Below, piece by piece: positions 7,072 through 41,500 of a DNA stretch of 64,000 nucleotides. Origin of the DNA: a virus; the UHGV virus genome UHGV-0049167; one strand, written 5' to 3'. The translations under genes and the position numbers were made by a program. Below the pieces are notes generated by a model. The model ran no database searches. It was given only the letters and a program-made list of their open reading frames with translations, and was not told the origin of the DNA. The stretch's first letter is position 1, and each line of letters starts with the position of its first letter.

Positions 7072-7284
7072 ATGTACCAGAAAATTCTTTTAGTTTCGGT
7101 ATGGCTGGTTGTTTCACTTCTCGTCGTTTCGCTTTTATGTGAAATGCTCTCGGCAAGCGACACCATATCCAACATGTGCGGCTTCGTGCTTCTGATAGCA
7201 TACGCCCTGCTAAGCGTCAAGACACGGTTATTTACAAAATTCAAGTTCAATAACAAAAACAACAACAAAATCAAGTTCAAATGA
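7072..7284 (+). CDS. small membrane protein (partner of SPFH protein, NfeD-like role possible)
   Basis: Internal ATG; hydrophobic LLVSVWLVVSLLVVSLL and GFVLLIAYALL; ATGA overlap with next gene. Confidence 0.4.
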   Translation: MYQKILLVSVWLVVSLLVVSLLCEMLSASDTISNMCGFVLLIAYALLSVKTRLFTKFKFNNKNNNKIKFK

Positions 7285-9838: not shown

Positions 9839-11937
9839 ACAGATACGCCGCATACAGCCGTGAGCAGATAGAAGAGCTGCAATCCCATTACCTCATTGAC
9901 TCGTGGTCGTACTCTAAGGTGGCGACATTCGCGCGCAACGAGAAATCCTTTGAGAAGCAGTACGTCTACTACGACAAGGAGAAGCGCAGCGTCTCGTCCA
10001 TAGCGGGCAACGCCTACCACGAATCATTGAGGCTGTACTTCACAACCTTGAAGCAGGGCGGCACGGAGATTTCCTTGCCCGAGCTGGAGGAGTCAGCCTT
10101 CTCTTACATAGACAATGTTCCGGCGAACGAGTGGAAGCCGTCAAAGACATGTCCCACGGTAGAGGAGTGCCGTATCAAGGCATTCAAGTCCGTATCGTCA
10201 TTGCTGCGCAATTTCTACGGTGAGCGCACGGTCTATACTGATTCCATCGGAGAAGTTCTCGGTGTGGAGCTTTCCTGCCGCGAGTTCCTTACGGTCAACG
10301 GTGTGGATATACCGTTGCCGTGCAATGCGGTAATAGACCTTGTGTTCCGACATAAGGACGGACGTGTGATAATAGTGGACCACAAGACGCGCTCACGCTA
10401 TACGGATGAGGAGGAGGTCGCCTTCACTTGCGGCAAGCAGGCGGTGACTTATCTTCTCGCCTACGAGGCTAAGGAGGGCATTACTGCGGATGAGGTATGG
10501 TTCGTTGAGAACAAGGAAAGCGTGAACAAGAACGGCTCTCCGCAACTCGCAAGACAGGTCATGACTATGGATACGGACAGCCGCCGCCTTTATGAGGCGT
10601 TGCTTTACGAGCCGCTCCGCCGCATGGTGGAGGCAGTGTCCGACCCGGACTATGTGTTTGTTGCCAACGACACGGACAGCCTTTGCGACCGTGGCGCGCT
10701 GTTCAGCTTCTGGGCAAAGACCATGATAGCCGAGGTGTCAGACTTCGACATACCCGAGAATAAGAAAGAACTTATCACAAGACGTCAGCGCAAGATACGC
10801 GACGCGTCCCTTGCCGTGATAAGCCCCAAGACAATAAGCCTTTTCAAGAAAAAGGCGGCATCATTCATACAATATGATTTAACAGATACAGATATGAGCA
10901 ATCCGGAAAAGATAGAGCATGTGCTGCGTACGTTCGGCATACTCACGCAGGTGGCTCACGAGATGCAGGGTCATTCCTCGTGCACCTATCTGCTTGAGGC
11001 GAGCGCGGGAGTGAAAATCAGCCAGATTTCGAAATACAGGCTCGATATAGCCAATGCCCTCAATGTGCCATCAGTGAGAATAGGTGACAACCTCGTGGTT
11101 TACGAGGGCAAGTCATACCTTCCCGTCGAGGCTCCGGTAAAGGGCGGAGGCATCCTGTATTGGGACGTGAAATACCTTGAGGACAAGAACCGCATACCTC
11201 TCGGTGTGGACAATTTCGGAAATGTGATATGTTGGGACATCCACAATCATGCCACACCGCACATGCTTATATGCGGAGCCACAGGCAGCGGAAAATCCGT
11301 AAGTATAATAAGTACTGTCGAATACGCCCTTGAGGCAGGCATTAATGACATAACGATATTCGACCCGAAATACGAGTTCTGCGGTTACGCCTCGCGTCCC
11401 GGAGTCAAGGTCTACAATGAGATAGAGGACATAGAGGAGCAGATGCGGCTATGCGTCGAAGACATGCAGAGCCGTGCAAGAACCGGAGTCCATCAGCTTA
11501 AACTGATAGTGTTCGACGAGTTCGCGGATGCGGTGGCGTCGGCAAAGTCAGGTGCGGAGCTTGATATAAAGGAAATGGTCGAGGTCGGACAGCGGAAGGG
11601 TGATTTCGGCATGCTTGTCCCAAAAATGGAACTGAGGACGACAGGAAGGCTCAAATCGCTCGAGGAGAACCTGAAAATGCTGTTGCAGAAGGGACGCTCG
11701 CTCGGCTTCCGCATAATCGCCGCGACGCAGCGTGCGTCCGCCAATGTCATAACAGGTGACGCGAAGGTTAACTTCCCTGTGCTTGTATGCTTCCGCGTGC
11801 CTAAAGAGATAGACTCGAAGGTCGTCCTTGACGAGCCTGGGGCGGAAACCCTTAATGGCAAGGGCGACGGACTGATAAAAAGTCCCGAATACTTCGGACT
11901 CGTACGTTTCCAAGGATTTTATAAACCAAACCCATAA
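9835..11937 (+). CDS. fusion protein: N-terminal PD-(D/E)XK nuclease domain + C-terminal FtsK/SpoIIIE-like P-loop ATPase
   Basis: 700 aa; nuclease-like IDLVFRH...IIVDHKTR; Walker A LICGATGSGKS, Walker B LIVFDEF, FtsK-like IIAATQRASANVITGD; ATGA overlap with recT. Confidence 0.7.
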   Translation: MNRYAAYSREQIEELQSHYLIDSWSYSKVATFARNEKSFEKQYVYYDKEKRSVSSIAGNAYHESLRLYFTTLKQGGTEISLPELEESAFSYIDNVPANEWKPSKTCPTVEECRIKAFKSVSSLLRNFYGERTVYTDSIGEVLGVELSCREFLTVNGVDIPLPCNAVIDLVFRHKDGRVIIVDHKTRSRYTDEEEVAFTCGKQAVTYLLAYEAKEGITADEVWFVENKESVNKNGSPQLARQVMTMDTDSRRLYEALLYEPLRRMVEAVSDPDYVFVANDTDSLCDRGALFSFWAKTMIAEVSDFDIPENKKELITRRQRKIRDASLAVISPKTISLFKKKAASFIQYDLTDTDMSNPEKIEHVLRTFGILTQVAHEMQGHSSCTYLLEASAGVKISQISKYRLDIANALNVPSVRIGDNLVVYEGKSYLPVEAPVKGGGILYWDVKYLEDKNRIPLGVDNFGNVICWDIHNHATPHMLICGATGSGKSVSIISTVEYALEAGINDITIFDPKYEFCGYASRPGVKVYNEIEDIEEQMRLCVEDMQSRARTGVHQLKLIVFDEFADAVASAKSGAELDIKEMVEVGQRKGDFGMLVPKMELRTTGRLKSLEENLKMLLQKGRSLGFRIIAATQRASANVITGDAKVNFPVLVCFRVPKEIDSKVVLDEPGAETLNGKGDGLIKSPEYFGLVRFQGFYKPNP

Positions 11938-20576: not shown

Positions 20577-20862
20577 ATGGAACAAGACAACGTTATCGCA
20601 AAGGAATGCTCGCACTGCCACCGCACGTTGCCCGTCACGGAGTTCTACAAGAAGAAAGGCACGTCCGACGGTCTGCAATACTACTGCAAGCAGTGTCAAA
20701 TTGAGTTTAACAACGCCTACAAATGCAAGAAGAAGGCTTTCGGGGGGGGGGAATCCCGAACTCTCACGCTTCACGCCACGTCAGCTTATGGAGGAACTTA
20801 AAGCCCGCGGCTATACTGGAGAACTGAAATATGTACAAACAATAAATCTTGAAAGATTATGA
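20577..20862 (+). CDS. zinc-ribbon protein interrupted by a G10 tract; full-length product needs a 1-nt frame change at 20742-20751
   Basis: Frame 0 gives CSHCHRTLPVTEFYKKKGTSDGLQYYCKQCQ...GGG then early stop at 20801; +1 frame continues NPELSRFTPRQLMEELKARGYTGELKYVQTINLERL and ends at 20862 in ATGA overlap with next gene. Confidence 0.45.
20742..20751. repeat. G10 homopolymer tract inside coding sequence
   Basis: cgggggggggga read directly. Confidence 0.9.
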
Positions 20863-21815
20863 CACAGACCGGCATAATCGTCCTTCCGCATCAAATCAAA
20901 ATGAAAGCGTGTGAAATACAACTCGACTACGACACCGTAATGTCAAAGGTAAGCCGCCCGCTTGCAAGGAAGCTGGTACACTCCGTGGAGCTTTTGCGGA
21001 AGTCGGAGAAAATGGCGTTGCGCCTCGACCCCGAAAACGGCTTTTACCTTGCGTTCAGCGGCGGCAAGGACAGCCAATGCCTCTACCATGTCGCAAAGCT
21101 GGCCGGTGTCCGCTTCAAGGCTCACATGAACCTTACGAGCATAGACCCGCCCGAAGTCATCCGCTTCGTCAAGACGCAATACCCCGATGTGGAGCTAATC
21201 AAACCACGGATGAGCATTTACGAAATGGCTAAGAAAAAGCACATCTTGCCTACAAGGATTTTGCGCTGGTGTTGCGCCGAGTTCAAGGAAACGTCAGGCG
21301 TTGGCAAAATAACACTTGTCGGTGTGAGAAAAGAAGAAAGCGCACGGCGAGCCAAACGTGAGGAAATATCCACAGAGATAAAGGGCAAGCGCACTGAGGA
21401 AACCTTTGACCAATGGAGCGAACATGAGGAGAGCATGGTTGCGTGTGTCGGCGGTAAGGACAAAATCCTTGTATCGCCCATAATCTATTGGACGGAGCGC
21501 GACGTGTGGGAGTTCCTTAACGTGAACGGCATACCACACTGCGAACTCTACGACGAGGGTTATACACGCATTGGCTGCATCTGTTGCCCTATGTCGCAAC
21601 CATGGCAAAAAGCCAAAGAGATTAAACGTTGGCCGCACGTCAAACGCAATTGGATAAAGACAATCCAATGGCTGATAGACAACGGATATATCGACCACAA
21701 TTTCAACGACGCTGAAACAGGCTTTAGGTGGTGGATAAGCGGCAAGGGCTACAAGCAGTTCTACGCCGACGAGTTCCTGCAACAGAAAATTGAATTTAAA
21801 GACAAAGACCAATGA
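20859..21815 (+). CDS. phosphoadenosine phosphosulfate (PAPS) reductase family protein (PP-loop ATP pyrophosphatase fold)
   Basis: PP-loop motif YLAFSGGKDSQCLYHV; 318 aa. Confidence 0.7.
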   Translation: MTQTGIIVLPHQIKMKACEIQLDYDTVMSKVSRPLARKLVHSVELLRKSEKMALRLDPENGFYLAFSGGKDSQCLYHVAKLAGVRFKAHMNLTSIDPPEVIRFVKTQYPDVELIKPRMSIYEMAKKKHILPTRILRWCCAEFKETSGVGKITLVGVRKEESARRAKREEISTEIKGKRTEETFDQWSEHEESMVACVGGKDKILVSPIIYWTERDVWEFLNVNGIPHCELYDEGYTRIGCICCPMSQPWQKAKEIKRWPHVKRNWIKTIQWLIDNGYIDHNFNDAETGFRWWISGKGYKQFYADEFLQQKIEFKDKDQ

Positions 21816-23365: not shown

Positions 23366-23501
23366 AGGTATTTTTAGCATAAATATTAATTAGTTAAAAA
23401 TTTAAATAGTAAGATAATCGCAAGATGTTTGTTCTCATATAACTAATATTGTTTATGAAAAGTAATCGATTTCCCGATATTATGGTTATTTTTGCAAACA
23501 A

Positions 23502-24557
23502 ATGAATTTTGCCAAATTTTACGATATAAGTGATTGGGTAGAAAAGCCCTACATCAACACAAAAGGTACCAGGAACAAATGTATTGTCATAGACCCAGAT
23601 AGTGGTATTGAATATTATTTCAAAACCTCTATCCACAAAGGTGCTATGGACTACAAGACTGAGTTCTGGTCAGAAATCATAGCTTCCAAAGTTGGGCAAT
23701 ATCTGAATTTCAATGTGCTGGATTATAACATAGCCAAACATAAGGATGAAGTCGGTTGCCTCTCTATGTCTATGATAAAAGACGGTGAATGCCTTACGGA
23801 GGGTATAAGTCTACTGACAGGATTCGACAATACTTATCGACCGTCAGACAAAGATTCATATTCACAATACACTTTCCATTTCATTGAAGAGGCCATAAGC
23901 AGTTTCGGATTGTCAAAGAACATTGACGATGTTATCAGGACCATTATCTTTGACTCTATAATAGGGAATAGTGACAGGCATCAAGAAAACTGGGGGTTCA
24001 TCACGCCTTTTCAAGAAAAAACATTAACAAGGGAGGAGGCAAAAAGTTTTCTTGGAAGATTGAAAGAGCGCATCAAGAAGATACAGGATTCATCGCGTGG
24101 CAACAACGGAAACGTTCCTTTAGACGTCCACGTCAAGATACGGATTTTGCAAATTGTCGGTAAATACGCTCCGATATATGACAGTGGATGCTGTCTCGCA
24201 CGTGAAAAAAACGAAGGAGCCGTAAGGCAAATGCTTAATGACAAAATAATGTTCGACAGTTTTGTCAACCGTGGGCAGTCTGAAATACGTTGGGACGAAA
24301 GTGGGAGAAAGCTAAACCATTTCGAGTTGATAAAGCGCATAAAAGAAAAATATTACGAAGTCGTTACCGATACAATCAACCAAGTCATCGCCGTTTATGA
24401 TGAAAATAAGATACATGACATTGTATTTAACATAGACAAGCGCCTTCCTGACGTACTGAAAGCTGACGAACGTTGGGCTTTGTCTGATGACAGGAAAGAA
24501 TTGATATGTAGATTGATTGACGAACGTTTTAACAGACTAAAAAACATTATATTATGA
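23502..24557 (+). CDS. HipA-like (PI3/4-kinase fold) serine/threonine kinase domain protein
   Basis: Catalytic-loop-like DSIIGNSDRHQENWGF and APIYDSGCCLA; 351 aa, lacks long HipA N-terminal region; AT-rich upstream region. Confidence 0.6.
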   Translation: MNFAKFYDISDWVEKPYINTKGTRNKCIVIDPDSGIEYYFKTSIHKGAMDYKTEFWSEIIASKVGQYLNFNVLDYNIAKHKDEVGCLSMSMIKDGECLTEGISLLTGFDNTYRPSDKDSYSQYTFHFIEEAISSFGLSKNIDDVIRTIIFDSIIGNSDRHQENWGFITPFQEKTLTREEAKSFLGRLKERIKKIQDSSRGNNGNVPLDVHVKIRILQIVGKYAPIYDSGCCLAREKNEGAVRQMLNDKIMFDSFVNRGQSEIRWDESGRKLNHFELIKRIKEKYYEVVTDTINQVIAVYDENKIHDIVFNIDKRLPDVLKADERWALSDDRKELICRLIDERFNRLKNIIL

Positions 24558-25225
24558 AAAGATATATAAGACAAATCTACTTGGTATGGAGACGAGGTAG
24601 AAACGAAAGAAGAATAAAGGTCGGAAGAATTCTCCGTAATAGTACGGAGGGGGTACGGTTCATGTACATGTCAGAAGGAGTCAAGGAAGCAGTGGAAAAA
24701 GGATTCAATATGTATCCTGATTTTCCAGACCCAGGAAAAGTGTACCATAACAACGTGCTTGAAATATTTTCACAGAGGTTGAACAACACCGAACGTTCAG
24801 ATATACAAAAGTATTATGACTATTGGGAAATAAGCCCTGAGATGAAAGATGACAAATATTATGTGCTTGCCCAAACGCAAGGACTTCTGCCGACAGACAC
24901 ATTCGAGTTTCTTGCAGAATATTATCCGGTAAAGGATTTGCGTTTTACCAGCGAAATTTGTGGATTGACAAAAATGCAGCTTCCTAACGGAACTTTGAAA
25001 GAAGGTGATATGCTAAAATGGAAATTGGAGCCAAGTAATCCTTACGATAAATATGCCGTAAAGTTATATAAGGAGAATAAGGAATTAGGATATGTTAAAT
25101 TAATACACAGTAAGGTTTTCCATGATTCAAAATACAAAAAATTCGCTGTAAAGGTAAAAAGCGTAGAACAGAATGGACATATAAACAGGGTTTTTGTTTC
25201 CGTATCCACTATTAATGTCAGGTAA
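24554..25225 (+). CDS. HIRAN-domain protein
   Basis: C-terminal EPSNPYDKYAVKLYKENKELGYV resembles HIRAN signature; ATGA overlap with kinase gene. Confidence 0.55.
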   Translation: MKRYIRQIYLVWRRGRNERRIKVGRILRNSTEGVRFMYMSEGVKEAVEKGFNMYPDFPDPGKVYHNNVLEIFSQRLNNTERSDIQKYYDYWEISPEMKDDKYYVLAQTQGLLPTDTFEFLAEYYPVKDLRFTSEICGLTKMQLPNGTLKEGDMLKWKLEPSNPYDKYAVKLYKENKELGYVKLIHSKVFHDSKYKKFAVKVKSVEQNGHINRVFVSVSTINVR

Positions 25226-25250
25226 TTCCACTTTCACGATAAAAAGCATT

Positions 25251-25282
25251 AAGCCCGATTGCCAAATGTGGCGGTCGGGCTT
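25251..25282 (+). terminator. hairpin after HIRAN gene (8-bp stem aagcccga/tcgggctt, 16-nt loop); weak terminator candidate
   Basis: Inverted repeat read directly; no strong U tract on plus strand. Confidence 0.25.
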
Positions 25283-25316
25283 AATCTATCTATAAACATA
25301 ATTAAGACAAAACAAT

Positions 25317-25871
25317 ATGAACTTAAAGAAACTATCACAAAAAGCTTTTGAGACCGCAAAGGCGCACGGATGGCATGATGAAGAACTTCCTGACGAAACT
25401 TATTTGATGCTTATCATAACGGAGATAGCCGAAGCTGTACAGGCAGATCGCAATAACAGGCACACGGATATAGACCTTTTCAAAGCATTACTTGAAACAT
25501 ACGCCAAAGATGATGCTGTATTTAAGTATGAATTTGAGACACATATCAAAAACAACGTCGAGGATGAGCTTAGCGACATAATCATACGCTGTCTTGACCT
25601 TGCCGCGCTACGTAATTGCGACCTTTCCCTTGCAAAGGCTGTGACAGACGACAATATTTTTACAGTGAATGACGAGCTGCCAAAATTCGCTTTCAGGATG
25701 TGCTGGATGCTTACGTATGAAGCTGACACCTTGTGCAGCCGACTGAATTGCTGTATTGCTGGCGTCATCGCATACTGCCATCAAAAAGACATCGACATCG
25801 ACTTCTTCGTCGAGCAGAAGATGCGCTATAACAGACTCCGCCCATTTAAGCATGGGAATAAGAAATATTAA
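25317..25871 (+). CDS. MazG-like / all-alpha NTP pyrophosphohydrolase-like protein (tentative)
   Basis: 184 aa; AFETAKAHGWHDEE...LMLIITEIAEAVQADR resembles MazG-type helix. Confidence 0.45.
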   Translation: MNLKKLSQKAFETAKAHGWHDEELPDETYLMLIITEIAEAVQADRNNRHTDIDLFKALLETYAKDDAVFKYEFETHIKNNVEDELSDIIIRCLDLAALRNCDLSLAKAVTDDNIFTVNDELPKFAFRMCWMLTYEADTLCSRLNCCIAGVIAYCHQKDIDIDFFVEQKMRYNRLRPFKHGNKKY

Positions 25872-26448: not shown

Positions 26449-26958
26449 CTACCACTGCCAAAGCCTATAATATACGGATATTCCTATGAAAGGTGTCGGT
26501 TTCATGTCTTTCCCTATACCGTAACCTGCGGCAATACCGACGCCAAGGAGCGGACTTTCCTTGTACCTTGTGACAGTTACAGTCTCGTGTCTCGGATATA
26601 CAAATATACTGTCAAGATTCGCGCGGAATCCGCTCACGTATGCGGTATAGGTACTGTCCTTATAGACTTTGGAAGTTATAGGCAGTGTCACCTTGACGCT
26701 GTCGCCTGTATTCCCGCCCTTCTCTTCGTATATCGTGTCTTTGCGGCAAGTCACGGGCAACGTCTCCGTAACATACCGTATCACCGTACTGTCTTTGGGT
26801 ACAGGATTCAAGAACGGAATGGTGTCTATATATGTAGTCCGTACTGTGTCCTGATTCGTTGTTTTCTTTCCGGCATTACTGCACTGGAGTATGTTGACGC
26901 ATAATGATGCGGTCAACAACACCGATACTACCACAAGCAATCCTTTAAATCTTCCCAT
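26449..26958 (-). CDS. secreted or membrane-anchored protein
   Basis: N-terminal signal-like MGRFKGLLVVVSVLLTASLCVNILQCS; 82 nt downstream of HTH-ImmA gene on same strand. Confidence 0.45.
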   Translation of the reverse strand: MGRFKGLLVVVSVLLTASLCVNILQCSNAGKKTTNQDTVRTTYIDTIPFLNPVPKDSTVIRYVTETLPVTCRKDTIYEEKGGNTGDSVKVTLPITSKVYKDSTYTAYVSGFRANLDSIFVYPRHETVTVTRYKESPLLGVGIAAGYGIGKDMKPTPFIGISVYYRLWQW

Positions 26959-27040: not shown

Positions 27041-28096
27041 TTATATTAGTGGCTTTAATGATATTATCCTAGCAGATTTGCCGAATATCTTTATCAAGAC
27101 ATCCTCGGGCAAGCCTGTGCTTTCCGAAATCATGCTGATTGAATACCCCAATGTGTCCGATACCAGCCTATATGCCTGCTCAAAGACGGTAGGGCTGTCA
27201 ATAGGCACTTCGTAAGGTTCTTTCTTATTCCAATGACGTCTGCTGAACTCCATTCTCATAGACTTGTACTTCTCACTTGCAATGGCGTTTATGTTTTTTG
27301 CCTTTTCCAAAAGTGATGCCATGGAAACAAGCCAATACCGTTTCAGCTCAGGGAACTGTCCGAGTCTGACATTGTGCAAGGCGTTTCTGACAACTTGGGA
27401 GGGGAGAAGGAACTCCGATGCAAAAGCGTTCGCCTCTTTCTCCTTGTCTCTAATGCTGAATACCGGGAAACTTGGGCACTCGTGCATCAGTATGTGTCCC
27501 AGCTCATGTGCAAGCGTAAACCTTACCCTGTCGTTGCTTCTGTTCCTGTTCACGATGATAAGATGATTGCCTGCGTCAGTTATCAGGGAAACCCCGTCAA
27601 ACTCGTCGTTAGGACTGTCCCACATGTAAATGAATACCCCGTTTCGCTCAAGGAATTTGCAAATATCGGATATAGGCGACATGCCGAGCCTGTATTTGTT
27701 CCTTATGTGCCCGGCAAGTTCCTCCGGGCTTATGCCGTTGTCCATGTCGTAGTATCCAAATGAATAGTCAGGTATCTCGACAAATTCACTAAGCCAATCA
27801 AAACAATACGCAATCAGGGATATTGTCCTGTCTATCTCGTTGCGTGTCTTTACGGTTATGGTAGCCTTTTTCCTGTAATGCTTGCTGTCTACCTTGTTCA
27901 CAATATTCATGTCAAGGAATTTCATCGGGAAATCAAGCGTGGACATAATCAAACCAAGCATGTTGTCAGACAGCCCGCCAAACCCCTTTTCGTATTTTGA
28001 CAGGTTGGATTGCGACAGCCCTTTGACTTTTGCCGCGAGTGCGGTTTGCGTGAATCCCCTGTATTCCCTTGCGAATGTAAGCTGCTCACATTTCAT
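27041..28096 (-). CDS. XRE-type HTH domain fused to ImmA/IrrE-family (M78-like) metallopeptidase domain
   Basis: N-terminal HTH FTQTALAAKVKGLSQSNLSKYEKG; HExxH-type FTLAHELGHILMHE. Confidence 0.8.
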   Translation of the reverse strand: MKCEQLTFAREYRGFTQTALAAKVKGLSQSNLSKYEKGFGGLSDNMLGLIMSTLDFPMKFLDMNIVNKVDSKHYRKKATITVKTRNEIDRTISLIAYCFDWLSEFVEIPDYSFGYYDMDNGISPEELAGHIRNKYRLGMSPISDICKFLERNGVFIYMWDSPNDEFDGVSLITDAGNHLIIVNRNRSNDRVRFTLAHELGHILMHECPSFPVFSIRDKEKEANAFASEFLLPSQVVRNALHNVRLGQFPELKRYWLVSMASLLEKAKNINAIASEKYKSMRMEFSRRHWNKKEPYEVPIDSPTVFEQAYRLVSDTLGYSISMISESTGLPEDVLIKIFGKSARIISLKPLI

Positions 28097-28958: not shown

Positions 28959-29552
28959 TCACACTTTCCCCAAGTACGCCATGATGCCTTCCACGTGCAG
29001 CTCCACAATGGTTCGCTTGCCTTTCTCGCTCAGCAGATAGTCCACGTCCTCCCGGTTGTCCTGAAAAAGGTTTTCAGTCAGGACTGCGGGACAATTTGTG
29101 TCACGGCATATTGCGAGATTCTGTGTCCAATATGGCTCATCCTGTGAGTATCTTCGGACTTTCAGTCCTTGTGTCTCTGCCGCGTCAATCAGACGGCAGG
29201 CGAGCTCTTTGCTCTTCTTTGAAGCGTTGCGCGAGACATAAGCCGACCATCCTCTGGCGTCATGCCATTTGCCGTCGGCACCAGCCGCGTTACAGTGTAT
29301 TGAGACAAGTATCGCTTTCTTTCCTGTCGCGGCATAAATCCTGTTTGCCCTTTCGCACCGCTCTTTCAGGCTGATGTCGTTTTCCTCGGGCACAATGCGC
29401 TGCGCGTCATATCCACGTGCCTTGAGTTCCCTTTCAAGACGCACTGCAATCTCACGGGCGTATGCGTATTCGAGCAGGCGTCCGTCAGGCGACCGTTTCC
29501 CTGCGGTGTCCTTTCCGTGTCCCGCATCAAGTATAACTTTAAAATTTTCCAT
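28959..29552 (-). CDS. N-acetylmuramoyl-L-alanine amidase (Amidase_3-type endolysin)
   Basis: ILDAGHGKDTAGKRSPDG and SIHCNAAG motifs; last gene of minus-strand late operon. Confidence 0.8.
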   Translation of the reverse strand: MENFKVILDAGHGKDTAGKRSPDGRLLEYAYAREIAVRLERELKARGYDAQRIVPEENDISLKERCERANRIYAATGKKAILVSIHCNAAGADGKWHDARGWSAYVSRNASKKSKELACRLIDAAETQGLKVRRYSQDEPYWTQNLAICRDTNCPAVLTENLFQDNREDVDYLLSEKGKRTIVELHVEGIMAYLGKV

Positions 29553-31446: not shown

Positions 31447-32532
31447 TTATTCTGTTGTTTGTTCACTCGGTAATACATAGTCTGCGTCTATATACTTTCT
31501 TATAAATGCCTTTATCTGTTGCTCGTCTAATGAGCGGTCAAAGAGGTAGGCGGAGTAGAAAACTATTCTTGCACATAAACCGTTGTTGGCAACTCTTACC
31601 TTACCGATAGTTACATCGTTTAAATTCTGGCTTTTCAAGCTACCCTTTGATATAGAAATTCCATTATAAGTCGTACTATTTACATATACAATATTTTTTT
31701 CAACTGACGCAGGCGAATCTAATTCAGTACTTGTTCCAAATAATATTATAGCGTTATTGGGATAATCTGTAGAGTTCGGTGCTCTTTCAAAACCTAATAT
31801 GTTGAAAGACGCATTATTACTATTTTGAAGTGAAATTCCAAATGGCAGTGAGATACCTTTGTATGAATAATTAGTATATTCTCTTACCATTATACATGTA
31901 AGTTCGTCAATAGTTCCGACTTGAGTTACTCCGTAATCATCCACGCCGTCAAAGACAAGAGCATCGGGGTATTCGGGGAGGAGTTGAATGGCAATATTCT
32001 TAAAATTCCCTTTAATAAATGGAGCTCTATTATAAGGACTATCCGACATTGTAGATTGAGGAACTGTATAAATTCCATCATTACGAATTTCTATATAATT
32101 CCATCCTAAAGAACTTGAACCTAAACAATAATAAATTCGTAAGTGTTCATCGGCATTAAGTCCAATTACTTTTATTTTGTATTCATTCCAAGTCCAATAG
32201 GATGAAATCCTTTCTAAATTAAGTGTCCCTGTAAAATTTTCTATTTTAATAGAAGTTTCAGTAACTTCAAAATTATATGTGTTGTAATTAAGATAGTTTT
32301 TACCATTTAATTTAGTTCTATATCCCCCATACCCGCTCATTTTGCTAAAAGCAAAGTTATTCAGCGTAATATCATGCCCATTACCCGTCAAATCACGCAA
32401 TACATTTCTATCAGCATCATCATTGCTCTTTCCTGCCGCCGACCATGCCGCGATAAGTCCCGGGTAATTTATGTTGCTGTCGCTCTTTTTAAGCGCGTTG
32501 GCTATCATAAGCCTGCGTCTATATATGCTCAT
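31447..32532 (-). CDS. putative tail fibre / receptor-binding-like structural protein
   Basis: 361 aa, Asn/Ser/Thr/Tyr-rich beta-like composition; assignment by context. Confidence 0.4.
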   Translation of the reverse strand: MSIYRRRLMIANALKKSDSNINYPGLIAAWSAAGKSNDDADRNVLRDLTGNGHDITLNNFAFSKMSGYGGYRTKLNGKNYLNYNTYNFEVTETSIKIENFTGTLNLERISSYWTWNEYKIKVIGLNADEHLRIYYCLGSSSLGWNYIEIRNDGIYTVPQSTMSDSPYNRAPFIKGNFKNIAIQLLPEYPDALVFDGVDDYGVTQVGTIDELTCIMVREYTNYSYKGISLPFGISLQNSNNASFNILGFERAPNSTDYPNNAIILFGTSTELDSPASVEKNIVYVNSTTYNGISISKGSLKSQNLNDVTIGKVRVANNGLCARIVFYSAYLFDRSLDEQQIKAFIRKYIDADYVLPSEQTTE

Positions 32533-34223
32533 GCCGCACCTCCCATGACTGCTATATTATTGACTATGCTCACTTGATATGTCTTGCTTGCTTCTATGGT
32601 GCTGTCGCCTATCCACTTTACGTCATCGGGCAGCGACAATGTGGTCGGAGTCGCACCGCTTGTGAACTCGAACATGTATTCCTCCCGTATATCCGTGTCT
32701 CCGCTGGCGAATGTAAGTGTGAGGCTTGTCACCTCTCCGAACACATAGAGTATGCCCGGCTTCAGTTCCTGTGTCACCTCGCTGCCCTCAACCTCCACAC
32801 GTCCGCGCATATCGTCAATTTCCTTTTTTGTGTAATATCCCGAAAGGTCTGTTGCCGGATAGAACCCACGGCTCATACTCAGACCGTCATCATGACCTTC
32901 GGTGCACCAATATGCCATCTTGTCCTGTACCGAGTAGAACAGGCGGTTATGATAGCCTGTGTCGTACGCATCAGGGCTATCCCAAAAGCCTGTTCTATTC
33001 CACTCCGAATAAAGCTTCCCTGTCTCTGATTTGTAAGCATAGAAAGCATATCCGGCAGAAGTGCCTGTGAATTCAGCGCAAACACCGTCGAAATCATCTC
33101 CCGCGTTCTCTCCGTGGGCAATCTCATGTGACAGCTTCGTTGAAATCCATAGCAGCGGAAGCACATGCCTTCTGTTCAAATCACGTACGGGCATCGTCCC
33201 TCCGCCTCCGAGCAGTATGTCCTCATCGCTCTTGCCCTTGTATGCAAATGTCTTGCTCCATTCGGGAATAGAATCTGGATAGTCATTGCCCAAGGAAAGA
33301 CTGACGCGCTTTTTGATATATTGAGGCTGGTCTCCATTAAAATCAACCATCCCCCTGCAGAAGGAAATTGTATAATGATTGTGATGGTCAATTGCATGCT
33401 GGTCAAGAAAATCTATAAACAGATGTTCCCTTGGGTCAATCTGTCCATAAAGCCGATGCACTCCGGAAAGAACTCTTATGTCGCTTACGTCAAATCTGTA
33501 GTCTCCAGCATAAGGTAAATCTCCAAAAATTACATTATCCCCGTAACTTTCATCTTTGTTGTATGCCAATCTCGGTAGATATAAGGCATAGTTTTCTTTT
33601 AGACATTCTTCTGCTGTGGCAGGATATGATAAGTCAGTGCTCTTTAATGCAATTCCTATCATGCCATCGTATCCACGAAGCCAAACCGGATGACCCTTGA
33701 CAAGTATCTTCTTTTTCAAGGCATCGGTGTCTCGCATATCAATCACCTCATGCCCTCCACCCGTAATAAGAGCCGCCCATTCCTCTTCCGAGCCTTCATA
33801 CCCGTGCAGCACGGCTATCTCATAGGCGGACAGACCGTTGCCCGGCACACTGATGTCCATGTCAAGCTCGATGTTCACGGTGCCGGTCTCCACACCCTCG
33901 TCGCTGCTTATTGACACAAGCTCGAAGGCGCATGCCTCATCCACGGTGTTGCGGTTGTTGTCGCCCCAATCCTCGGTAAGTGTCACCGTATACGCGCCTG
34001 TCCACTGCTGCTGTGTGCCCGTCCATCCTGCTATCAGCTCCTCTCCTGACTGTACTACAGGAAGGCTCACGCTGCCGAGAATGTTGCGCAGCATAAGACC
34101 TATTTTCTTTCCCTCGAGGTTCTCTGCACCGCCACGGCGTGTAAGCCTTATGCGCAGAATGATGTCGTTTCCTATTCTTATACGTCTCATGGTCTGTCTC
34201 CTTTCTTTACTGTTCCGGCTCAC
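32529..34223 (-). CDS. putative tail/baseplate structural protein
   Basis: 564-aa ORF; overlaps neighbours in operon. Confidence 0.45.
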   Translation of the reverse strand: MSRNSKERRQTMRRIRIGNDIILRIRLTRRGGAENLEGKKIGLMLRNILGSVSLPVVQSGEELIAGWTGTQQQWTGAYTVTLTEDWGDNNRNTVDEACAFELVSISSDEGVETGTVNIELDMDISVPGNGLSAYEIAVLHGYEGSEEEWAALITGGGHEVIDMRDTDALKKKILVKGHPVWLRGYDGMIGIALKSTDLSYPATAEECLKENYALYLPRLAYNKDESYGDNVIFGDLPYAGDYRFDVSDIRVLSGVHRLYGQIDPREHLFIDFLDQHAIDHHNHYTISFCRGMVDFNGDQPQYIKKRVSLSLGNDYPDSIPEWSKTFAYKGKSDEDILLGGGGTMPVRDLNRRHVLPLLWISTKLSHEIAHGENAGDDFDGVCAEFTGTSAGYAFYAYKSETGKLYSEWNRTGFWDSPDAYDTGYHNRLFYSVQDKMAYWCTEGHDDGLSMSRGFYPATDLSGYYTKKEIDDMRGRVEVEGSEVTQELKPGILYVFGEVTSLTLTFASGDTDIREEYMFEFTSGATPTTLSLPDDVKWIGDSTIEASKTYQVSIVNNIAVMGGAA

Positions 34224-35550
34224 CGTAGCCGTTTATATCTGTGTCTGCCTCTATATATGCTCTGAAACCGTTCGCTTCCTGCGGTTCCTGAAGATGATAC
34301 ACAAGACCTCCTGTTCCAAGCGTGTATGCTCCGGCAGGCACTGTTGTTTTGCAGTAGAATCCCTTCATTGTGACCCCATTATATGTCACCGGCAGCGGTT
34401 CCGTCTCCCATTGTGAGACATTGGCTATGATATACTCGGAAGCGGGACTGTCACCGCCCGGTTTAAAAAGATACGGCTTGCCAGCCTCAATTGATGTGAC
34501 TTTGGTAAAGTGCAAGGTTTTCCCTTCTATTGAAGTATATTCCGAAACCTCCGTCCCTTCACCGAATACGCCCGCTATGTCCGTCACGTTGAACGGCAGG
34601 CACAAAGAGTGCCAGACACCCGCACCGAACGTCCTTTTAAGCGTAACGGACACTGTCAGCCCGAGCTTTGCGCAGCTCTCTATCACGGTCTGATTATAAT
34701 GTCCGTCAGACGACTGGTCAAGAGTGACGGCAGAGAGTGGGGTGGAGGAGGCTGTCAGTCCGGCAATGTTCTCCGGAGGATATGTGAAATACCATCGGAA
34801 ACCTTTCATCGTGTTCACGCTCACGTTTGAATGGTACAGCTGTCCCGAGCTGAACAGATAGCATCCCTCGGGCAGAGCGTATATCTTGCCGTATGAAGGA
34901 TGGAACTTAAGTGAGCCGTAAGCAGGCTCAGGCGCGGCAGACACGACAGAGTCTATGTCCTCGAACACATACACACTGTCTGATGGCGGGTCAGCTGTCG
35001 GGACGACGACATAGCATTGTCCGGCATCCATGCCGTCCGTCACTTCGGTAAGCCGCAGGTTCGGGTCGTCTGTCAGACCTCCGTATGCGTAAACTTTTGT
35101 CCCCTCACCGAACGCAGCCGCAATCTGTGCGGTGCTTAAAGAGAACGGCAGTACGAACGTGTTGTAGATGTCCTTCTTGACACCGCTTCGTTTTACCTTT
35201 ACCGTCAGTCCGGTGCCTTCCACCGCGTTTACGGGTGTCTCGGACTCCTCGTCAAGAATCAGCTCGGATGTGCTGTCACGCACGCACGCCTTATCCGGCA
35301 GGCTCTCGCATTCAAGGCGCATCCGCAGCCCTTTGTCAATTTCCAGCATATGGAGCATGACGCTTCCTTCGCGCCTCTCGTATCTCGACCAAGTATGCGT
35401 CACGGTCATTCCCATGCCCGGCAGTCCCGCATACAGTGTGATACCGCTTTCCGGCTCACCGTCTATCTGTAATATTCCCTCACCGCCATGTGTCCATTCC
35501 GCATGCCACATTCCTCCGGTTTTGGAAAAGTTCAATGTTGTCAATGTCAT
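34207..35550 (-). CDS. putative tail structural protein with internal duplicated module
   Basis: Internal ATG at 35550 preceded by AGGAGG; repeated FxLPFxxxxxxIAxxFGEGTxV modules. Confidence 0.5.
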   Translation of the reverse strand: MTLTTLNFSKTGGMWHAEWTHGGEGILQIDGEPESGITLYAGLPGMGMTVTHTWSRYERREGSVMLHMLEIDKGLRMRLECESLPDKACVRDSTSELILDEESETPVNAVEGTGLTVKVKRSGVKKDIYNTFVLPFSLSTAQIAAAFGEGTKVYAYGGLTDDPNLRLTEVTDGMDAGQCYVVVPTADPPSDSVYVFEDIDSVVSAAPEPAYGSLKFHPSYGKIYALPEGCYLFSSGQLYHSNVSVNTMKGFRWYFTYPPENIAGLTASSTPLSAVTLDQSSDGHYNQTVIESCAKLGLTVSVTLKRTFGAGVWHSLCLPFNVTDIAGVFGEGTEVSEYTSIEGKTLHFTKVTSIEAGKPYLFKPGGDSPASEYIIANVSQWETEPLPVTYNGVTMKGFYCKTTVPAGAYTLGTGGLVYHLQEPQEANGFRAYIEADTDINGYGEPEQ

Positions 35551-35572
35551 ATACTGTCCTCCTGTTTTTTTA

Positions 35573-38500
35573 TCATAAATATATGTTTCCGTTCGTGTCC
35601 GTGTCATCATCGTCAATGCGATTAATCTGTATCATCTGCACCCTGTCATAATTCATGTATACGGCTGTTGTCGTTATCATGCTGCCGTAGTATACGGTGC
35701 CGCTTCCCGGTTGTACGATTCCGATGTTCGAGAATCTGTATACATTGCGCGAGCACCATTGTCTGGAGAAATCCACCTTTTCCGCATAGTCATCCTCATA
35801 TCGCGTATAGTCCATTGGCGGTGTGTCCATAGGCGAGCCTATCATGAACGATTCCGGATTGTCCTGCGCCCACATTCCTGTGACAGCCTGTGCCGTGGTC
35901 ACATTACCCTGCTCCATGAACCATCTGCCGTTCGCGGCTCTTGCAATCTCCGGAGTGGAGGCGTAGTCACCGCTGAGATATGTGTCGTTTACGCGCCCTG
36001 CAAGATACATGTACAAAGGTGTTTTCGTGTACACATGACCATATTGGAATATGGTGTTCATTATCTGTTTGTTGCCAACGATGTCGCCTACGGTGGAGAA
36101 TGTGGCCCCTGTCAGCTGCAGGCGTCCGTATTTGCTGCTGGTCTCCCACCGTTCTTCCGAGACATCCTTGCCGGACAGTCCCCACGGTCCGAGGTCATAA
36201 AGGAACGTACCGTCATTGTCATAATAGGACAGTACCATGTATGAGCCGTTATATCCCATTTTGATGTTGGTCACACCGTTAGGGTTCTTTACCTCAATCA
36301 GTCCTCCCTTTATCTCCACATGCCCCTGTCCTTCGTCCATCGTGCGGAGCATCACACCTGTAAGGGTGCCCGCCTCGTCGATTGTGGTGACTGTCTCGCC
36401 GGAGTTGTTCTGTATCTCGAAGTTGTCGGCAGTGACCTTTATGCGCTTGTGTTCAATGTCTATCCCTGTCGCCTGCAGCTCGTCGCGCGTGATTGTCTCC
36501 GAACGCCAGTCGGTCGCCTCGCTGCCTTTCTCCAGCTTCACTCCGCATATCCAGACCTCTCCCTGTGCAGAACTGTCCGGCATGAGCCGTGCCGCTATCA
36601 GGCTCTTCCCTCCGCTTACGTCATTGCGAGTGCTCCATGTCACCTGATAACGGTTCCATCCGCTTTCAAGCGTGAACTGCACGAATCCGTCTGTCACACC
36701 TGTCTGGTTCTTCGTCCCCGGACTTGTGACCCAGTCGGTGCAGTTCGGATAGAAGTACGAGCCGATGCTGCCTGTGCCGCGCGCCCAGAATGAGAGCGTA
36801 TACTGTACGCCCGGCTCGGGCACCACGTTGCGCCATGTGATGACGTCCTTGTATGATGTCCCGGCTTCGTTCACACCGTGTGCCACGCTTATTTTTTCTC
36901 CGTAAGGTGTCGTGTATGCTCCTGCCTCTACGGTATCCTGTACGGTGCATTGGCTGAAGTCCGATGTTCCTGGAAGAAGATTCGGTCTTTTAAGCCTGTC
37001 CTCCGCGCTGAGTCCCCAGTCTGTCGCGTCCGCACCTGTCTCTATCTTGGGACGCGACACGGACGAGTATCCTGATGATATGCCCTGTATATACAGGTTA
37101 CACTGCTCTACCGACGCCACAGCCTTGTCCTGTATCCTGTGTGTGGAGCTTATGCGTCCCTCGAACGTGTCCGTGGATGTTATCTGCCTCCATGTCCCGA
37201 GATACTGCGTACTGCCGTCGGCATACCGTATCATGGGCTCCATGCCGATACGTCTGTTGCCTGATGCTGCCGGAACCGCAGATACGGTCTTGACAAGACA
37301 TGATACGGTTATTGTCTTTCCGCGCAGGCTTGACACATCCCCGATTGTGTAGACCTTGTTCCCGTTCCCTGTCAGGAATATGTCAGGAGTGGTCACCATG
37401 TTTCCGTCCTTTGCCCCAAGATAGCCGACTTTAAGGCTTATGCTGTCCGTCTCAGCCTTAATCTGCGATGAGAGTGCCATGGACGATACAGTGAAGGACA
37501 GGCGGCAGCTCACACTGCGGGTCTCCCCGCCCAGCGTTGCCTGTGCCGTAATCTGTACCCATCCCGCTCCGTATGGCACCGAACCTCCCCAGTCTGCCGT
37601 ATATGTCCCTATTGCGGTTATTGTAACCTGTGCCCCGTTGCGTGACGCAAGACAGTGCATAGGCTCTATGGCGGTAATTGTGACAGTCATCTCGCGCGTG
37701 CCGAGCCATGCGCGCAGACGTGATGTCGCATCCTGCATGCTCACCACACCGTCACTGTCAGCCTCCAATGTTATGGCGGCAGGGTCAAGTGCCCATGAGA
37801 AGCCGTCCTGCCCGTCCGTGCCGGGTTCACCGTCACTTCCGTCCGCTCCGTCCTCACCGCGTATCCGTGTCCACTTATATGAGGTAACGCTTGTCGGGTC
37901 ATATGAGTTGAAGTCTACGCATTGCCCGAGCCACGCGCCCGGTGTCTCACCGTTGTTTGCTGTGAACGTCTTTCCCCCGTCGTCGGAATATTTGATGTGA
38001 AGGTAGCTTGTCTTTCCGTCCGTACCGTTGGTTCCCGGTATTCCCTGCTCCCCATCATACCCTTGGAAGCGTGACCACGTGTAGTCCGAAGGGTCGTCGC
38101 TGTCTGCCTCCGTGAAGTCAACGTATGTGCCGATGTAGAGGTTGGGAACTTCTGACATTGGAGTCCCGTTGGAGTTTGCCGAGTATTTAACATGGAAATA
38201 TGTCGTACGACCGTCCTCTCCTGCGGGTCCCGGAACGCCCTGCTCCCCCTTGTCTCCTTTTTCTCCGGTATCACCCTTTATCTTTGACCATTTATAATCG
38301 GACGGTGTTCCGCTGTCTGTAGGATTCGTGTCTGTAAGGACTCCAATCCAGTCACCGCTGTCCTCTCCGTTGTTTCCGGTAAAGGTGACGCCTCCGTCGT
38401 TAGAGTATTTGATATGGAGATAATATGTCGTGCCGTCAGTCCCATTCACGCCCGGCAAGCCCTGTTCTCCCTGTATGCCTTCAAATCTTGACCAAGTGTA

Positions 38501-41500
38501 GTCAGATGCATCAGTACTGTCTGTTTCTGTAAAATCGACGTAAGTACCTATGTATTTGTCAGGCGTCTCGGTCATGGGCGTACCGCTCGCGTTCGCAGAA
38601 TACTTTATGTGGAAGTAGCTTGTACGTCCGTCCGCACCGGGTGTTCCGGGTATGCCTTGCTCGCCTTGCGGTCCTTGTAATCCTTGAAGCCCCTGCTCGC
38701 CTCTATCACCTTTGTCTCCTTTGTCGCCCTTTATCTTCAACCAAGTGTATTCTGACGAGTCTGTGCTGTCGTCAGCGTTGGTGTCTGTCATGACGCCAAT
38801 CCACGCGCCCGGTGTCTCACCGTTGTTTGCTGTGAACGTCTTTCCCCCATCATCGGAGTATTTGATGTGAAGATAATATGTAAGCCCGTCCACACCGTTG
38901 GTTCCCGGTATTCCCTGCTCCCCATCATACCCTTGGAAGCGTGACCACGTGTAGTCCGAAGGGTCGTCGCTGTCTGCCTCCGTGAAGTCAACGTATGTGC
39001 CGATGTAGAGGTTGGGTGTCTCGGTCATGGGATTTCCGTTCTCGTTTGAAGAATATTTCACATGGAAGTATGTGGTCTTTCCGTCATGACCGGGTGCCCC
39101 GTCTTTACCGGCTACACCGGGAATACCCTGCTCTCCTTGCGGACCCTGCGGTCCCTGTATGTTTCCGGCATTCACCCACTTGTCACCGTCCCACACCCAT
39201 AAGTCTCCGTCTATGAGCCATGCGTCACCGACCGCGTTGCCGTCCTGCGGGAGTTCGGAAGAGTCATTCTTCGAACCTTTCAGATTGAATGAAGTCCCGT
39301 CCTCTCCACGGAATTTGCTCCATGTATAGTCGGAAGGATTGTCGCTTTCCTGTGCGCTCTCTTTGTTTACGGCTATGCCTATATATTTTGTCGTGTCTGA
39401 AGGGGTCTGATACATAGGCTCACCGTCCGGACTGTCAGAGTAGGCAATCCATGTATAGAGAGTCTCACCGTCCTCGCCCTTTGCTCCCGGCACTCCGTCC
39501 TCGCCTTTTATCTCTGACCAGGTATAGTCCGATGGATTGTCGCTTTCCTGTGCGGTATTCTTGTTATATGCGAATCCAATGTATTTCTTTCCGGAAGGGT
39601 CGTTGGATATGCCTCCTCCTTCAGCGGTGTCGGAATATCTTATCCATGTGTAAAGTGTCTTCCCGTCCTCACCGGACGGTCCTGGTACACCCTGTGGTCC
39701 CATGTCACCTTTCTCACCCTGCTGTCCGTCCATACCTCTGAAACGTGCCCATGTATAATCAGAGGGGACATCGCTCGCTGTAGGGTTAAAATCCACGCGT
39801 GTACCGATAAATACATCCGGAGTCTCACTCATGGGCACACCGTCAGGATTCGGTGAATATCTTATGTGAAAATATGTGGTTTTCCCGTCTGCTCCGTCTT
39901 CTCCAGCCGGACCCTGTATTTTTCCTGCGTTTGCCCATGCGCTGCCGTCCCATACCCACAGATAGCCGTTCACGAGATACGCGTCTCCTGTGCTGTTCCC
40001 TGTTGGCGGCAGCATGCTCTCGTCATCAACGCTTCCCTTCACAGTGAATGACGTGCCGTCCTTTCCGTCAGTACCTTTAATCCTTGACCATGCATAGTCG
40101 CTGTAGACGAGAGCCACGTCGCTCTCCGTGCGGTCTGTGCATATGCCGAGCATGAGCCAGTCTTTTGCCGTGCTCTGGGATTTGTCCTTTGTCCAGTCGT
40201 CCGGACCGTTTCCCCATGCAAGGTGCGTGTAGCTGACAAGACCGGAAGTGTCCACATCCAGCTCGCCTCTTATCTTATTGCCGTTAGCCGCGAACCATGT
40301 CGTGCGGTACTGGCTTAGAGAAAAACTTGTGATTCCGTTGTATTGCGCGAATGACGGACTCTCCAGCTCGGTATCCGGAGTGGAGTGGGCGGCTATTATT
40401 ATCGCATGGCTGCGCGCTGTGTCGTCACCACGGTGTCCGCACAGACAAACGCTGTCACCCTCTGCAGGCTCAAGGCTGTCAGCCGCGCACGTGGCTTCAG
40501 ACACTTCAATCCAATGGCACTTTCTGTCCTCACCGTCAATGTTCCGTGTTCCGCTCCCTGTTGCCGTGACAAGTCTCCACCATAGTCTGTTTCCTGCATC
40601 ATATGATGTCCCCTCGGCAAGATTGGATGTCATTGCCAGAGCCTGGTCTCCGACCTTCCACATGTTCTGCACGGCTCTGCCGTCGCTGTCCTCCGCCAGC
40701 CACCACAGACGCCATGCTCCGCTTATTCTTTCGACAGAGCGTACCGTGCAGTTAGCAGCGGACAGTATCAGTTGACCTCCGACGCTGTTCAGCTCATCTA
40801 TGACAAGCTCGAAGAAATGTGCCCTTCCTGTCACGGTCAGCGTTTTCATTGTGGCTTCGTCGGCAAGAAGTTTCTTCAGCCGTGCGGTACCGTCCGCATC
40901 TATGCCGTAGTCTCCGTCTCCCACAAGCAGCCCTTTGAGGAATGTTATAATATCCAAGGCTGTGTCCGGACTGTCTTTCCGCAGAAAATACTTCGCGCAT
41001 TGTGCTAAAATGTCACCACGCATGCCATAAGTCAGGGATGTAAGTATCTCTGTTTTTATGGAATCGAGCTGTGCTCTGAATGAGGATTGAGACACGGTCA
41101 GGGTGTCTGTTAAATCCACACTTATTTCATAAAGTATGCTATCATCGGCTTTACAAGTATAGTTGCTGACATACAGAAGATGCTCTTCTTGATTATATCT
41201 TACTGTCAGACGTGTATTTTCATTCAGCAATGAGGTGAAGTCCTCATTTAATGCCAGATATACACGGGAAAATTTTATTGAATATGTGAATTTCTCATCA
41301 TTATTCCCTTTCATGTAAGCAATAAGAGCCGCATCCAGTCTTTTTTCCGCTTCCCGTATGTAGGATTCAGGAAGAGAAATGCCAGTTATGACAAATGTAT
41401 CGCCTATTGACGGACGATATCCTTGTGCCGCGTTCGGCATAATGACACCAAAGGTATCTGTTTCTTTTTTTACGGCTATCCATACTTCATATTCGCTGGT

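Follow-up and report, generated by a model that had tools for sequence, protein, structure and literature searches.

The pairing of a HipA-family kinase with a HIRAN-domain protein was named hipIN by Gerdes, Baerentsen and Brodersen in 2021, the fused kinase-HipS-HIRAN form being called hipL, and the same authors proposed that recognition by the HIRAN domain of DNA ends, be they from invading phages or from intermediates of replication, switches the kinase on and leads to abortive infection (PMC8262856). In their table, the entry for Clade XI under experimentally analysed modules is 'None'; the published HipI subclades are from Actinobacteria, Firmicutes, and Proteobacteria plus Cyanobacteria, with kinases of 279-321 amino acids, and the main text names neither Bacteroidetes, prophages nor CtkA (PMC8262856). 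The PADLOC collection lists as PDC-M03 a candidate system made of a HipA protein and a HIRAN-domain protein, and a 2025 paper in Nucleic Acids Research (NAR) reports that a third of the diDNase genes adjoin HipI/HIRAN pairs in Gram-positive bacteria, where the pairs are called predicted toxin/antitoxin. Here we analyse a two-gene cassette in 64,000 nucleotides of the virus genome UHGV-0049167 (this whole stretch is hereafter the window), in which an earlier note, made from the sequence alone, had pointed to a HipA-like kinase gene overlapping a gene for a HIRAN-like protein.

The cassette is very probably a module of the hipIN/PDC-M03 type. The two PDC-M03 models are matched by adjacent genes with a 4-nucleotide overlap (PDC-M03A by the kinase, E value 8e-60, more exactly 8.1e-60; PDC-M03B by its partner, E 1.5e-30), and features described for hipIN are found, namely a short kinase without N-subdomain-1, a loop near the N terminus and both catalytic and Mg2+-binding motifs. 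The unit extends over positions 23366-25290 and contains two genes, with the following features:

23366-23501, + strand: AT-rich intergenic spacer 5' of the kinase gene, 136 nucleotides, GC content 0.22
23487-23494, + strand: Bacteroides-type -7-like box TATTTTTG in the spacer, a match to TAnnTTTG (weak evidence)
23502-24557, + strand: kinase gene, ATG start, 351 amino acids, HipI-like / PDC-M03A, without the HipA N-subdomain-1
23556-23579, + strand: conserved N-terminal loop N19-T20-K-G22-T23-R24-N-K26 (invariant columns in the kinase alignment)
23964-23993, + strand: catalytic loop G155-N-S-D158-R-H-Q-E-N163-W164 (invariance in the kinase alignment; aligns with CtkA)
23997-24164, + strand: variable insert of the kinase, residues 166-221 (low identity, predicted structure)
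24168-24188, + strand: Mg-binding motif A223-P-I-Y-D227-S-G229, with I225, Y226, D227 and G229 invariant
24554-24557, + strand: ATGA start/stop overlap at the kinase/partner junction, 4 nucleotides common to both reading frames
24554-25225, + strand: partner gene, ATG start, 223 amino acids
24554-24949, + strand: HipS-like domain of the partner, about residues 1-132
24950-25225, + strand: HIRAN domain of the partner, about residues 133-219, plus the stop codon
25245-25287, + strand: strong hairpin found by RNA folding, 20 nucleotides past the partner stop codon

The coordinates, lengths and overlap of the two open reading frames are exactly those given in the earlier note, with the shared ATGA, and the motifs that it had read are present in both products (GNSDRHQENW and APIYD in the kinase, N162-P-Y-D165-K-Y-A-V ... 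L178-G-Y-V181 in the partner), as is the AT-rich region that it placed upstream. The ATGA overlap is predicted from the sequence to couple the translation of the two genes. In composition the cassette is an island, with a GC content of 0.38 vs 0.45 in both flanks. The spacer is presumed to be the promoter region, and this promoter call is given little weight since the TAnnTTTG motif occurs 53 times across the window, no enrichment over the 42 +/- 7 occurrences expected, and the sigma-70 promoter and terminator scans of the window gave no enrichment over shuffled sequences. At the other end, the hairpin has a folding free energy of -29.1 kcal/mol (z -7.2 vs 200 shuffles) and is likely a transcription terminator or the end of the cassette mRNA; it was missed by the terminator scan because no T-run follows it.

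The first gene is predicted to encode a Ser/Thr-type kinase of the HipA/CtkA fold, with intact catalytic residues and without the N-terminal lid of HipA. Of the two Pfam searches that the earlier note had proposed, the one for HIRAN (PF08797) was positive on the partner (29.9, above the gathering score of 24.7), whereas HipA_C on the kinase stayed below its threshold (22.2 bits, E 1.3e-4, vs a gathering score of 30.5). The kinase assignment is for this reason based on the PDC-M03A match, on a profile match in the Protein Data Bank to CtkA of Helicobacter pylori (E 1e-13) and on the fold, which together bear out the HipA/CtkA-type kinase of the earlier note. The AlphaFold2 model has a mean predicted local distance difference test score (pLDDT) of 84.6, and a Foldseek comparison gives CtkA as the best match (E 3e-12, template modelling score (TM) 0.81), followed by HipA of S. 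oneidensis (3e-6), HipT of Legionella (1e-5) and HipA of E. coli (about 1e-4). Along its entire length the model matches CtkA and HipT, kinases that consist of the core only; as the earlier note remarked, the protein is shorter than canonical HipA (351 vs 440 amino acids).

In an alignment (A1) of 35 homologues that share 44-89% identity with the query, the residues N156, D158, R159, H160, Q161, N163, W164, I225, Y226, D227 and G229 are invariant, as are T20, G22, T23, R24, K26 and K41. Since their residues are invariant or family-defining across the homologues, GNSDRHQENW and APIYD are not chance strings. The catalytic loop aligns with CtkA GNFDRHNGNWGF and the Mg-binding motif with CtkA IAPIFDCG; when GNSDRHQENW is laid over GATDGHAKNF of E. 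coli HipA, an alignment that is not significant alone, D158 falls on D309 and N163 on N314, and D158 is the predicted catalytic Asp. The T20-K26 loop probably corresponds, by its position and its G-x3-K spacing, to the Gly-rich loop of Hip kinases (ATP binding, autophosphorylation); it has the G-x3-K spacing and invariant Thr residues but is not glycine-rich, and T20 and T23, both invariant, are candidate phospho-sites.

Between its catalytic loop and its Mg-binding Asp, the kinase has a distinguishing insert of about 55 residues (166-221), whose mean pairwise identity is 0.17 vs 0.49 in the remaining kinase. The predicted structure of the insert comprises a strand and a helix together with a Lys/Glu-rich loop that is disordered (pLDDT <50 at residues 190-210). 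CtkA has about 20 residues at this position and the distant HipI-like kinases (289-303 amino acids) are shorter overall; the insert accounts for the length of 351 amino acids compared with 279-321 in the published families. This insert, new here, is a feature specific to a mainly Bacteroidota/phage clade of the kinase and could serve as a surface for target recognition or for evasion of anti-defence.

[quoted passage not shown] The fold of the N-terminal domain matches HipS, the antitoxin of HipBST, and the N-subdomain-1 of HipA, and in a short local hhalign alignment that is not significant the partner residues 22-44 fall on HipA 12-34. The 'missing antitoxin' would thus sit inside the partner, the modelled HipS-like domain being the lid that the kinase lacks. 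The earlier note, which had described the partner as a DNA-end sensor, was right as to the HIRAN domain, which passes the Pfam threshold, but had overlooked the HipS-like N-terminal domain seen in the fold match.

In HLTF, the pocket that binds the 3'-OH end is formed by Asp94, Tyr93, Tyr72 and Phe142. The alignment of hidden Markov models places N162-P-Y164-D165 of the partner on N-P-Y-D of HLTF, and among the partner homologues N162 is invariant and D165 at least 90% conserved, residue 164 being variable, mostly Tyr/Phe. Some of the aromatic DNA-stacking positions of HLTF are not recognisably conserved in the partner, and the HIRAN domains of HLTF/Rad5 are carried by SWI/SNF helicase-RING proteins that remodel replication forks, whereas here the domain is on a kinase regulator.

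The mean pairwise identity is highest in the HipS-like domain (0.58), followed by the N-lobe of the kinase (0.53), the HIRAN domain (0.46), the C-lobe of the kinase (0.44) and the insert. At 77 of 78 genome loci (tblastn), similarity is higher for the partner than for the kinase, in part because of the hypervariable insert, but the excess of the HipS-like domain persists without it (0.58 vs 0.49 for the insert-free kinase). An 'antitoxin' better conserved than its 'toxin' is unusual among type II toxin-antitoxin pairs.

All the loci that were fetched (80 genome and 65 viral) encode relatives of the kinase, and 140 of them, those with enough downstream sequence, could be evaluated. The genome loci come nearly all from Bacteroidota, with a few from metagenome-assembled genomes of Planctomycetaceae, Oscillibacter, Butyricicoccaceae and Ruminiclostridium. 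The kinase is kept with a HipS-like-HIRAN module in 138 of the 140 evaluable loci: a tblastn match to the partner lies on the same strand a few dozen bases past the kinase match in 133, and the HipS-like plus HIRAN gene was recovered by profile hidden Markov models in 5 more. The partner is a separate downstream gene in 118 loci (113 by tblastn, 5 by profile models), whereas 20 viral loci (among L117-L144, distant clades) encode a fused protein of 546-554 amino acids with the kinase, the HipS-like and the HIRAN parts in that order.

The seven loci without a tblastn partner are the five recovered by profile models, L145 and L123. As a partnerless case L145 was rejected, its kinase being a canonical HipA of 440 amino acids; L123, of which the inspection covered other parts than the right one, is not counted among the 138. 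The N-terminal truncation of the partner in L147 was likewise dismissed as an artefact of gene calling, the DNA being identical. A fused form of 560 amino acids (P0245) occurs within the close Bacteroidota clade, and could be a real fusion or a 1-nucleotide indel at the ATGA junction.

Among the bicistronic pairs, the -4 (ATGA-type) junction is the modal one (78/114), and the pairwise divergences of kinase and partner are correlated (r = 0.84). The kinase and its partner are thus co-inherited, co-evolving and sometimes fused, and form a tight unit; the synteny whose absence the earlier note would have taken against its proposal is present. An exhaustive profile search of 1.84 billion entries with the partner yielded 967 cluster representatives with E <= 1e-3, of which 432 reached E <= 1e-10; the family is widespread but not large. 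Distant relatives, bicistronic and fused, with both genes homologous at 22-29% identity, were found on viral contigs and in GenBank phages of Clostridioides and Vibrio, and are consistent with a single family at the sequence level.

The same cassette recurs in comparable positions elsewhere. In a second lineage of Bacteroides prophages, with a kinase of 62% identity, the genes run Amidase_3, DUF6808, kinase, partner, two small open reading frames and integrase, the host DNA beyond the integrase being variable. In the Clostridioides phage phiCDKH02, the HipA-domain and HIRAN-domain genes have the ImmA/XRE lysogeny module on one side and the integrase on the other, and in Vinavirales elements of Vibrio the pair adjoins the integrase. 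In two chromosomal contexts, it is a lone insertion among housekeeping genes. The cassette is therefore placed recurrently at the lysis, lysogeny or integrase cargo sites of temperate phages from three phyla, which is new here.

The comparison with the described systems places the locus closest to hipIN, with which it shares a core-only kinase, a putative ATP-binding loop near the N terminus, the lack of HipB, fused relatives and the hypothesis of an abortive infection triggered by DNA ends; it differs in belonging to a mainly Bacteroidota clade, in being phage-borne and in its kinase of 351 amino acids with an insert, and its membership of clade XI is putative. The likeness to PDC-M03, itself a candidate only, lies in the strong matches of the adjacent genes to both models. 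As regards the pairing, the earlier note knew of no characterised system; no CHARACTERISED system was indeed found, but the pairing itself is not unpublished (hipIN, PDC-M03). The closest relative of the kinase, both in sequence and among solved structures, is CtkA (JHP0940; 3AKJ, 3AKK and 3AKL), which has the same GN-DRH--NWGF and APIxDxG motifs, although it was deposited as a 'proinflammatory kinase' and has no insert before the Mg-binding Asp.

HipBST of E. coli O127:H6 and Legionella pneumophila (7AB3, 8EZR, 7VKB) is tricistronic, with HipB present and a stand-alone HipS of about 100 residues encoded upstream of the kinase. Here, in contrast, the order is kinase then partner, HipB is absent, the HipS-like domain is downstream and fused to HIRAN, and the kinase is by its fold nearer to CtkA than to HipT. 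The target of HipT is TrpS. Canonical HipBA is a type II toxin-antitoxin system in which HipA blocks translation by phosphorylating GltX. It belongs to the same kinase superfamily and shares the catalytic chemistry (equivalents of D309, N314 and D332), but HipA has 440 amino acids with a built-in N-subdomain and the helix-turn-helix antitoxin HipB is encoded upstream, neither of which is present here. In HipBST, Glu63 and Trp65 of HipS insert beside HipT's Gly-rich loop and lock it in an outward, ATP-incompatible state (PMC10627512).

Taken together, these data lead us to favour, with moderate confidence in its full mechanistic form, the reading that the cassette is hipIN-type cargo of a temperate Bacteroidota phage and acts by growth arrest gated by DNA ends. 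By analogy with the Hip systems, the HipS-like domain would dock on the kinase beside the N-terminal ATP-binding loop, at the place where HipA carries its N-subdomain-1, and would hold it inactive as HipS does HipT. The HIRAN domain would bind free 3' DNA ends, such as those of an infecting phage or of its replication or packaging intermediates, and this binding would release or re-orient the HipS-like domain, relieving the inhibition. The freed kinase would then phosphorylate an essential host factor, most likely, judging from HipA and HipT, an aminoacyl-tRNA synthetase or another translation component. The infected lysogen would stop growing (abortive infection or superinfection exclusion), protecting the prophage-bearing population, and the prophage would, as a side effect of growth arrest, be hard to lose. 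The support for these inferred steps decreases along the chain from the docking of the HipS-like domain to the inactive state of the kinase, the binding of ends by HIRAN, the relief of inhibition and finally the phosphorylation of a target with arrest. The fused forms, the rigid packing of the partner (pTM 0.86) and the conservation pattern suggest that the partner is a built-in sensor or regulator subunit rather than a disposable, labile antitoxin. Of the toxin-antitoxin or anti-phage module put forward in the earlier note, what stands is a self-contained, mobile HipA-family kinase/HIRAN module of such a type, given the synteny in 138 of 140 loci.

Several observations weigh against this growth-arrest reading. 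The literature search returned no study of toxicity, neutralisation, DNA binding or phage defence for any member of the family (two apparent mentions of HIRAN, in Millman 2022 and in a 2026 review, proved to be the author name Hirano), and the chromosomal copies sampled are not in obvious defence islands. The hhalign comparisons of the kinase and partner alignments with E. coli K-12 HipA are not significant (E 0.07-0.12; 0.067 for the kinase), so that the relationship to HipA rests on fold and motifs. Equivalents of Trp65 and Glu63 of HipS could not be mapped in the partner, and equivalents of Tyr72 and Phe142 of HLTF were not identified in it, the 3'-end pocket being only partly recognisable. 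The higher conservation of the partner, especially of its HipS-like domain, is atypical for a fast-evolving, labile antitoxin. Finally, the homologous N-subdomain is in HipA a part of the active enzyme, and 'inhibitor' is not the sole reading of the HipS-like domain.

This last point leads to a different view, in which the two proteins are a split holoenzyme: the HipS-like domain would complete the kinase and HIRAN would target the complex to DNA ends, where it would phosphorylate replication, repair or phage proteins, in the service of the phage life cycle (lysis-lysogeny decision, host takeover) or of a DNA-damage response. We consider it rather improbable, as HipS is inhibitory in the only split system tested, no conserved neighbour stands out as a candidate substrate, and the cassette occurs also outside phages among housekeeping genes, hence independently of phage partners. 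Equally doubtful in our view is a classical addiction module that stabilises the prophage by post-segregational killing, with a labile partner in which HIRAN replaces HipB as the DNA-binding part (autoregulation or tether) and with no sensing of phages. In its favour, Hip modules belong to the type II toxin-antitoxin systems, and the pair is distributed as such systems typically are, as a mobile insert of two genes with low GC content that occurs in prophages, on a conjugative plasmid and in chromosomes; the phage also carries another toxin-antitoxin-like pair, HigB-like with HTH_3, at its putative attachment (att) end. The single-polypeptide fusions of 20 loci, however, cannot use differential degradation of an antitoxin, the partner is better conserved than the kinase, and HIRAN domains recognise DNA ends, not operator sequences (PMC8262856).

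That the genes are inactive or decaying cargo, or unrelated genes adjacent by chance, is very improbable and effectively excluded by the conservation data. The HipA_C score under the gathering threshold and a function not demonstrated for the family would agree with decay, but the catalytic residues are invariant in 35 diverse homologues, at least 23 contigs, originating from different samples, carry the identical kinase, the pair is kept in 138 of 140 loci from several phyla, and both reading frames are intact with confident structure models. The growth-arrest reading may be extended, though only tentatively, to the whole family: HipN-like partners would not be labile antitoxins of the classical sort but the sensor subunit of a kinase gated by DNA 3' ends, a switch that temperate phages from three or more phyla (Bacteroidota, Bacillota, Vibrio) would carry at integrase/lysis cargo sites and by which their lysogens would abort superinfection.

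The cassette is located where the rightward early and replication genes meet the leftward lysis and structural genes, with DUF6808, a repressor-like gene (HTH+M78, helix-turn-helix plus peptidase) and the endolysin gene as neighbours. The other features of the phage, with the strand where assigned, are as follows:

2265-3368, + strand: glutathionylspermidine synthase (phrog_6215, E 1e-110; Pfam GSP_synth in related contigs)
7281-8075, + strand: SPFH/Band_7 family protein, among the early genes (Pfam, E 2e-20)
8957-9838: RecT (PHROG/Pfam)
9835-11937, + strand: fusion of a PDDEXK nuclease with an FtsK/SpoIIIE-type ATPase, 700 amino acids (PHROG/Pfam)
20859-21815, + strand: PAPS-reductase-family gene
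25317-25871, + strand: MazG-like nucleotide pyrophosphatase, directly after the hairpin (phrog_9236, E 1e-49)
26449-26958, - strand: DUF6808 protein
27041-28096, - strand: fusion of HTH_3 and Peptidase_M78 (ImmA/IrrE-like), 351 amino acids (profile matches)
28959-29552, - strand: endolysin (PHROG/Pfam)
35573-43735, - strand: open reading frame of 2720 amino acids in the structural region, adjoining the portal gene
43735-45219, - strand: portal (PHROG/Pfam)
45768-47390, - strand: large terminase (PHROG/Pfam)
48989-50167: major head protein (PHROG/Pfam)
53267-59014: tape measure (PHROG/Pfam)
L163:13408-14069 and L165:912-1573, outside the window ends: HigB-like toxin and HTH_3 pair

Neighbour matching across the fetched loci found no other gene of the window syntenic with the pair. 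The gene of 249 amino acids upstream, the MazG-like pyrophosphatase and the small open reading frames have matches only in the same phage (L081), the HTH+M78 gene has matches in L081 and L016, the PAPS-reductase gene has none, and DUF6808 recurs in the second phage lineage. The earlier note had found no HipB-type gene next to the pair, and this holds, the upstream product of 249 residues having no Pfam hit and the nearby helix-turn-helix gene being non-syntenic. The latter (27041-28096) was considered as a HipB substitute and rejected, as it is on the opposite strand and has matches in only 2 of 145 loci; it is absent from the variant L146, which keeps the identical kinase. Its profile matches are PADLOC RmrA (E 1e-58), phrog_2439 'transcriptional regulator' (E 2e-74) and, below the cutoff, the NCBIfam 'spr1629 family repressor/antitoxin'; it is probably a phage repressor/anti-repressor module. 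The MazG-like pyrophosphatase was rejected as a third component, since outside this phage lineage the pair occurs without it; the kinase that it adjoins has relatives acting by way of the stringent response. DUF6808 adjoins the cassette in two lineages of Bacteroides phages (also L089-L094, L099 and L151-L154), each time beside an Amidase_3 endolysin, and is probably a component of the lysis module, not a part of the kinase system.

Among the variants, the DNA upstream of the cassette is a mosaic, while the cassette itself and three small upstream genes are constant; the PAPS-reductase gene is present in L149 and replaced in L146-L148 (by a DNA methylase in L146 and an HNH endonuclease in L148). 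Among the remaining genes, the PDDEXK-FtsK fusion directly after RecT is an unusual architecture for a recombination module, and glutathionylspermidine synthase is an uncommon auxiliary metabolic gene in a phage. The two genes beside the 2720-residue open reading frame (34207-35616 and 32529-34223) gave no PHROG hit.

Metagenomes and IMG/VR are the only known sources of the phage. A megablast search of the 20 kb around the cassette gave no match among GenBank phages, and the IMG/VR contig UViG_3300029749_000466 (L081) is 99% identical; of the contigs carrying the identical kinase protein, one has 229 kb. Beyond both edges of the window, the same HTH_3 and HigB-like pair is found, followed by a gene for 80 amino acids and a gene-free stretch of 2.3 kb, after which L163 continues into bacterial genes (Peptidase_S41, asparaginase) and L165, a contig of 74.8 kb, into the other end of the phage. 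From these contigs, which join the phage to bacterial genes and its two ends to each other, we conclude that the phage is temperate, with an estimated size of roughly 70 kb. The HigB-like/HTH_3 region is likely its att region, with a second toxin-antitoxin-like cargo; no integrase was identified.

The architecture of the pair was already described, and the Bacteroidota/phage clade, the kinase insert, CtkA as the closest solved relative and the recurrent placement at cargo sites are refinements brought by the present analysis. The hipIN/hipL (PDC-M03) modules have been predicted since 2021 to couple the recognition of DNA ends to a growth-arresting kinase, and this cassette is a clean test case, intact, highly conserved, present in many gut-type metagenome samples and with clear unit boundaries, for which the natural fused relatives would simplify the biochemistry. 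Should the proposed model fail, the understanding of HipS-like domains would be revised by the alternative, a HipA holoenzyme that is split and directed to DNA ends. If the model is true, a kinase-based mechanism triggered by DNA ends would be added to the prophage-encoded immunity of a dominant gut phylum, with an immune sensor built on a kinase and directly reading free DNA ends, and this would explain the recurrence of the pair at the cargo sites of unrelated temperate phages.

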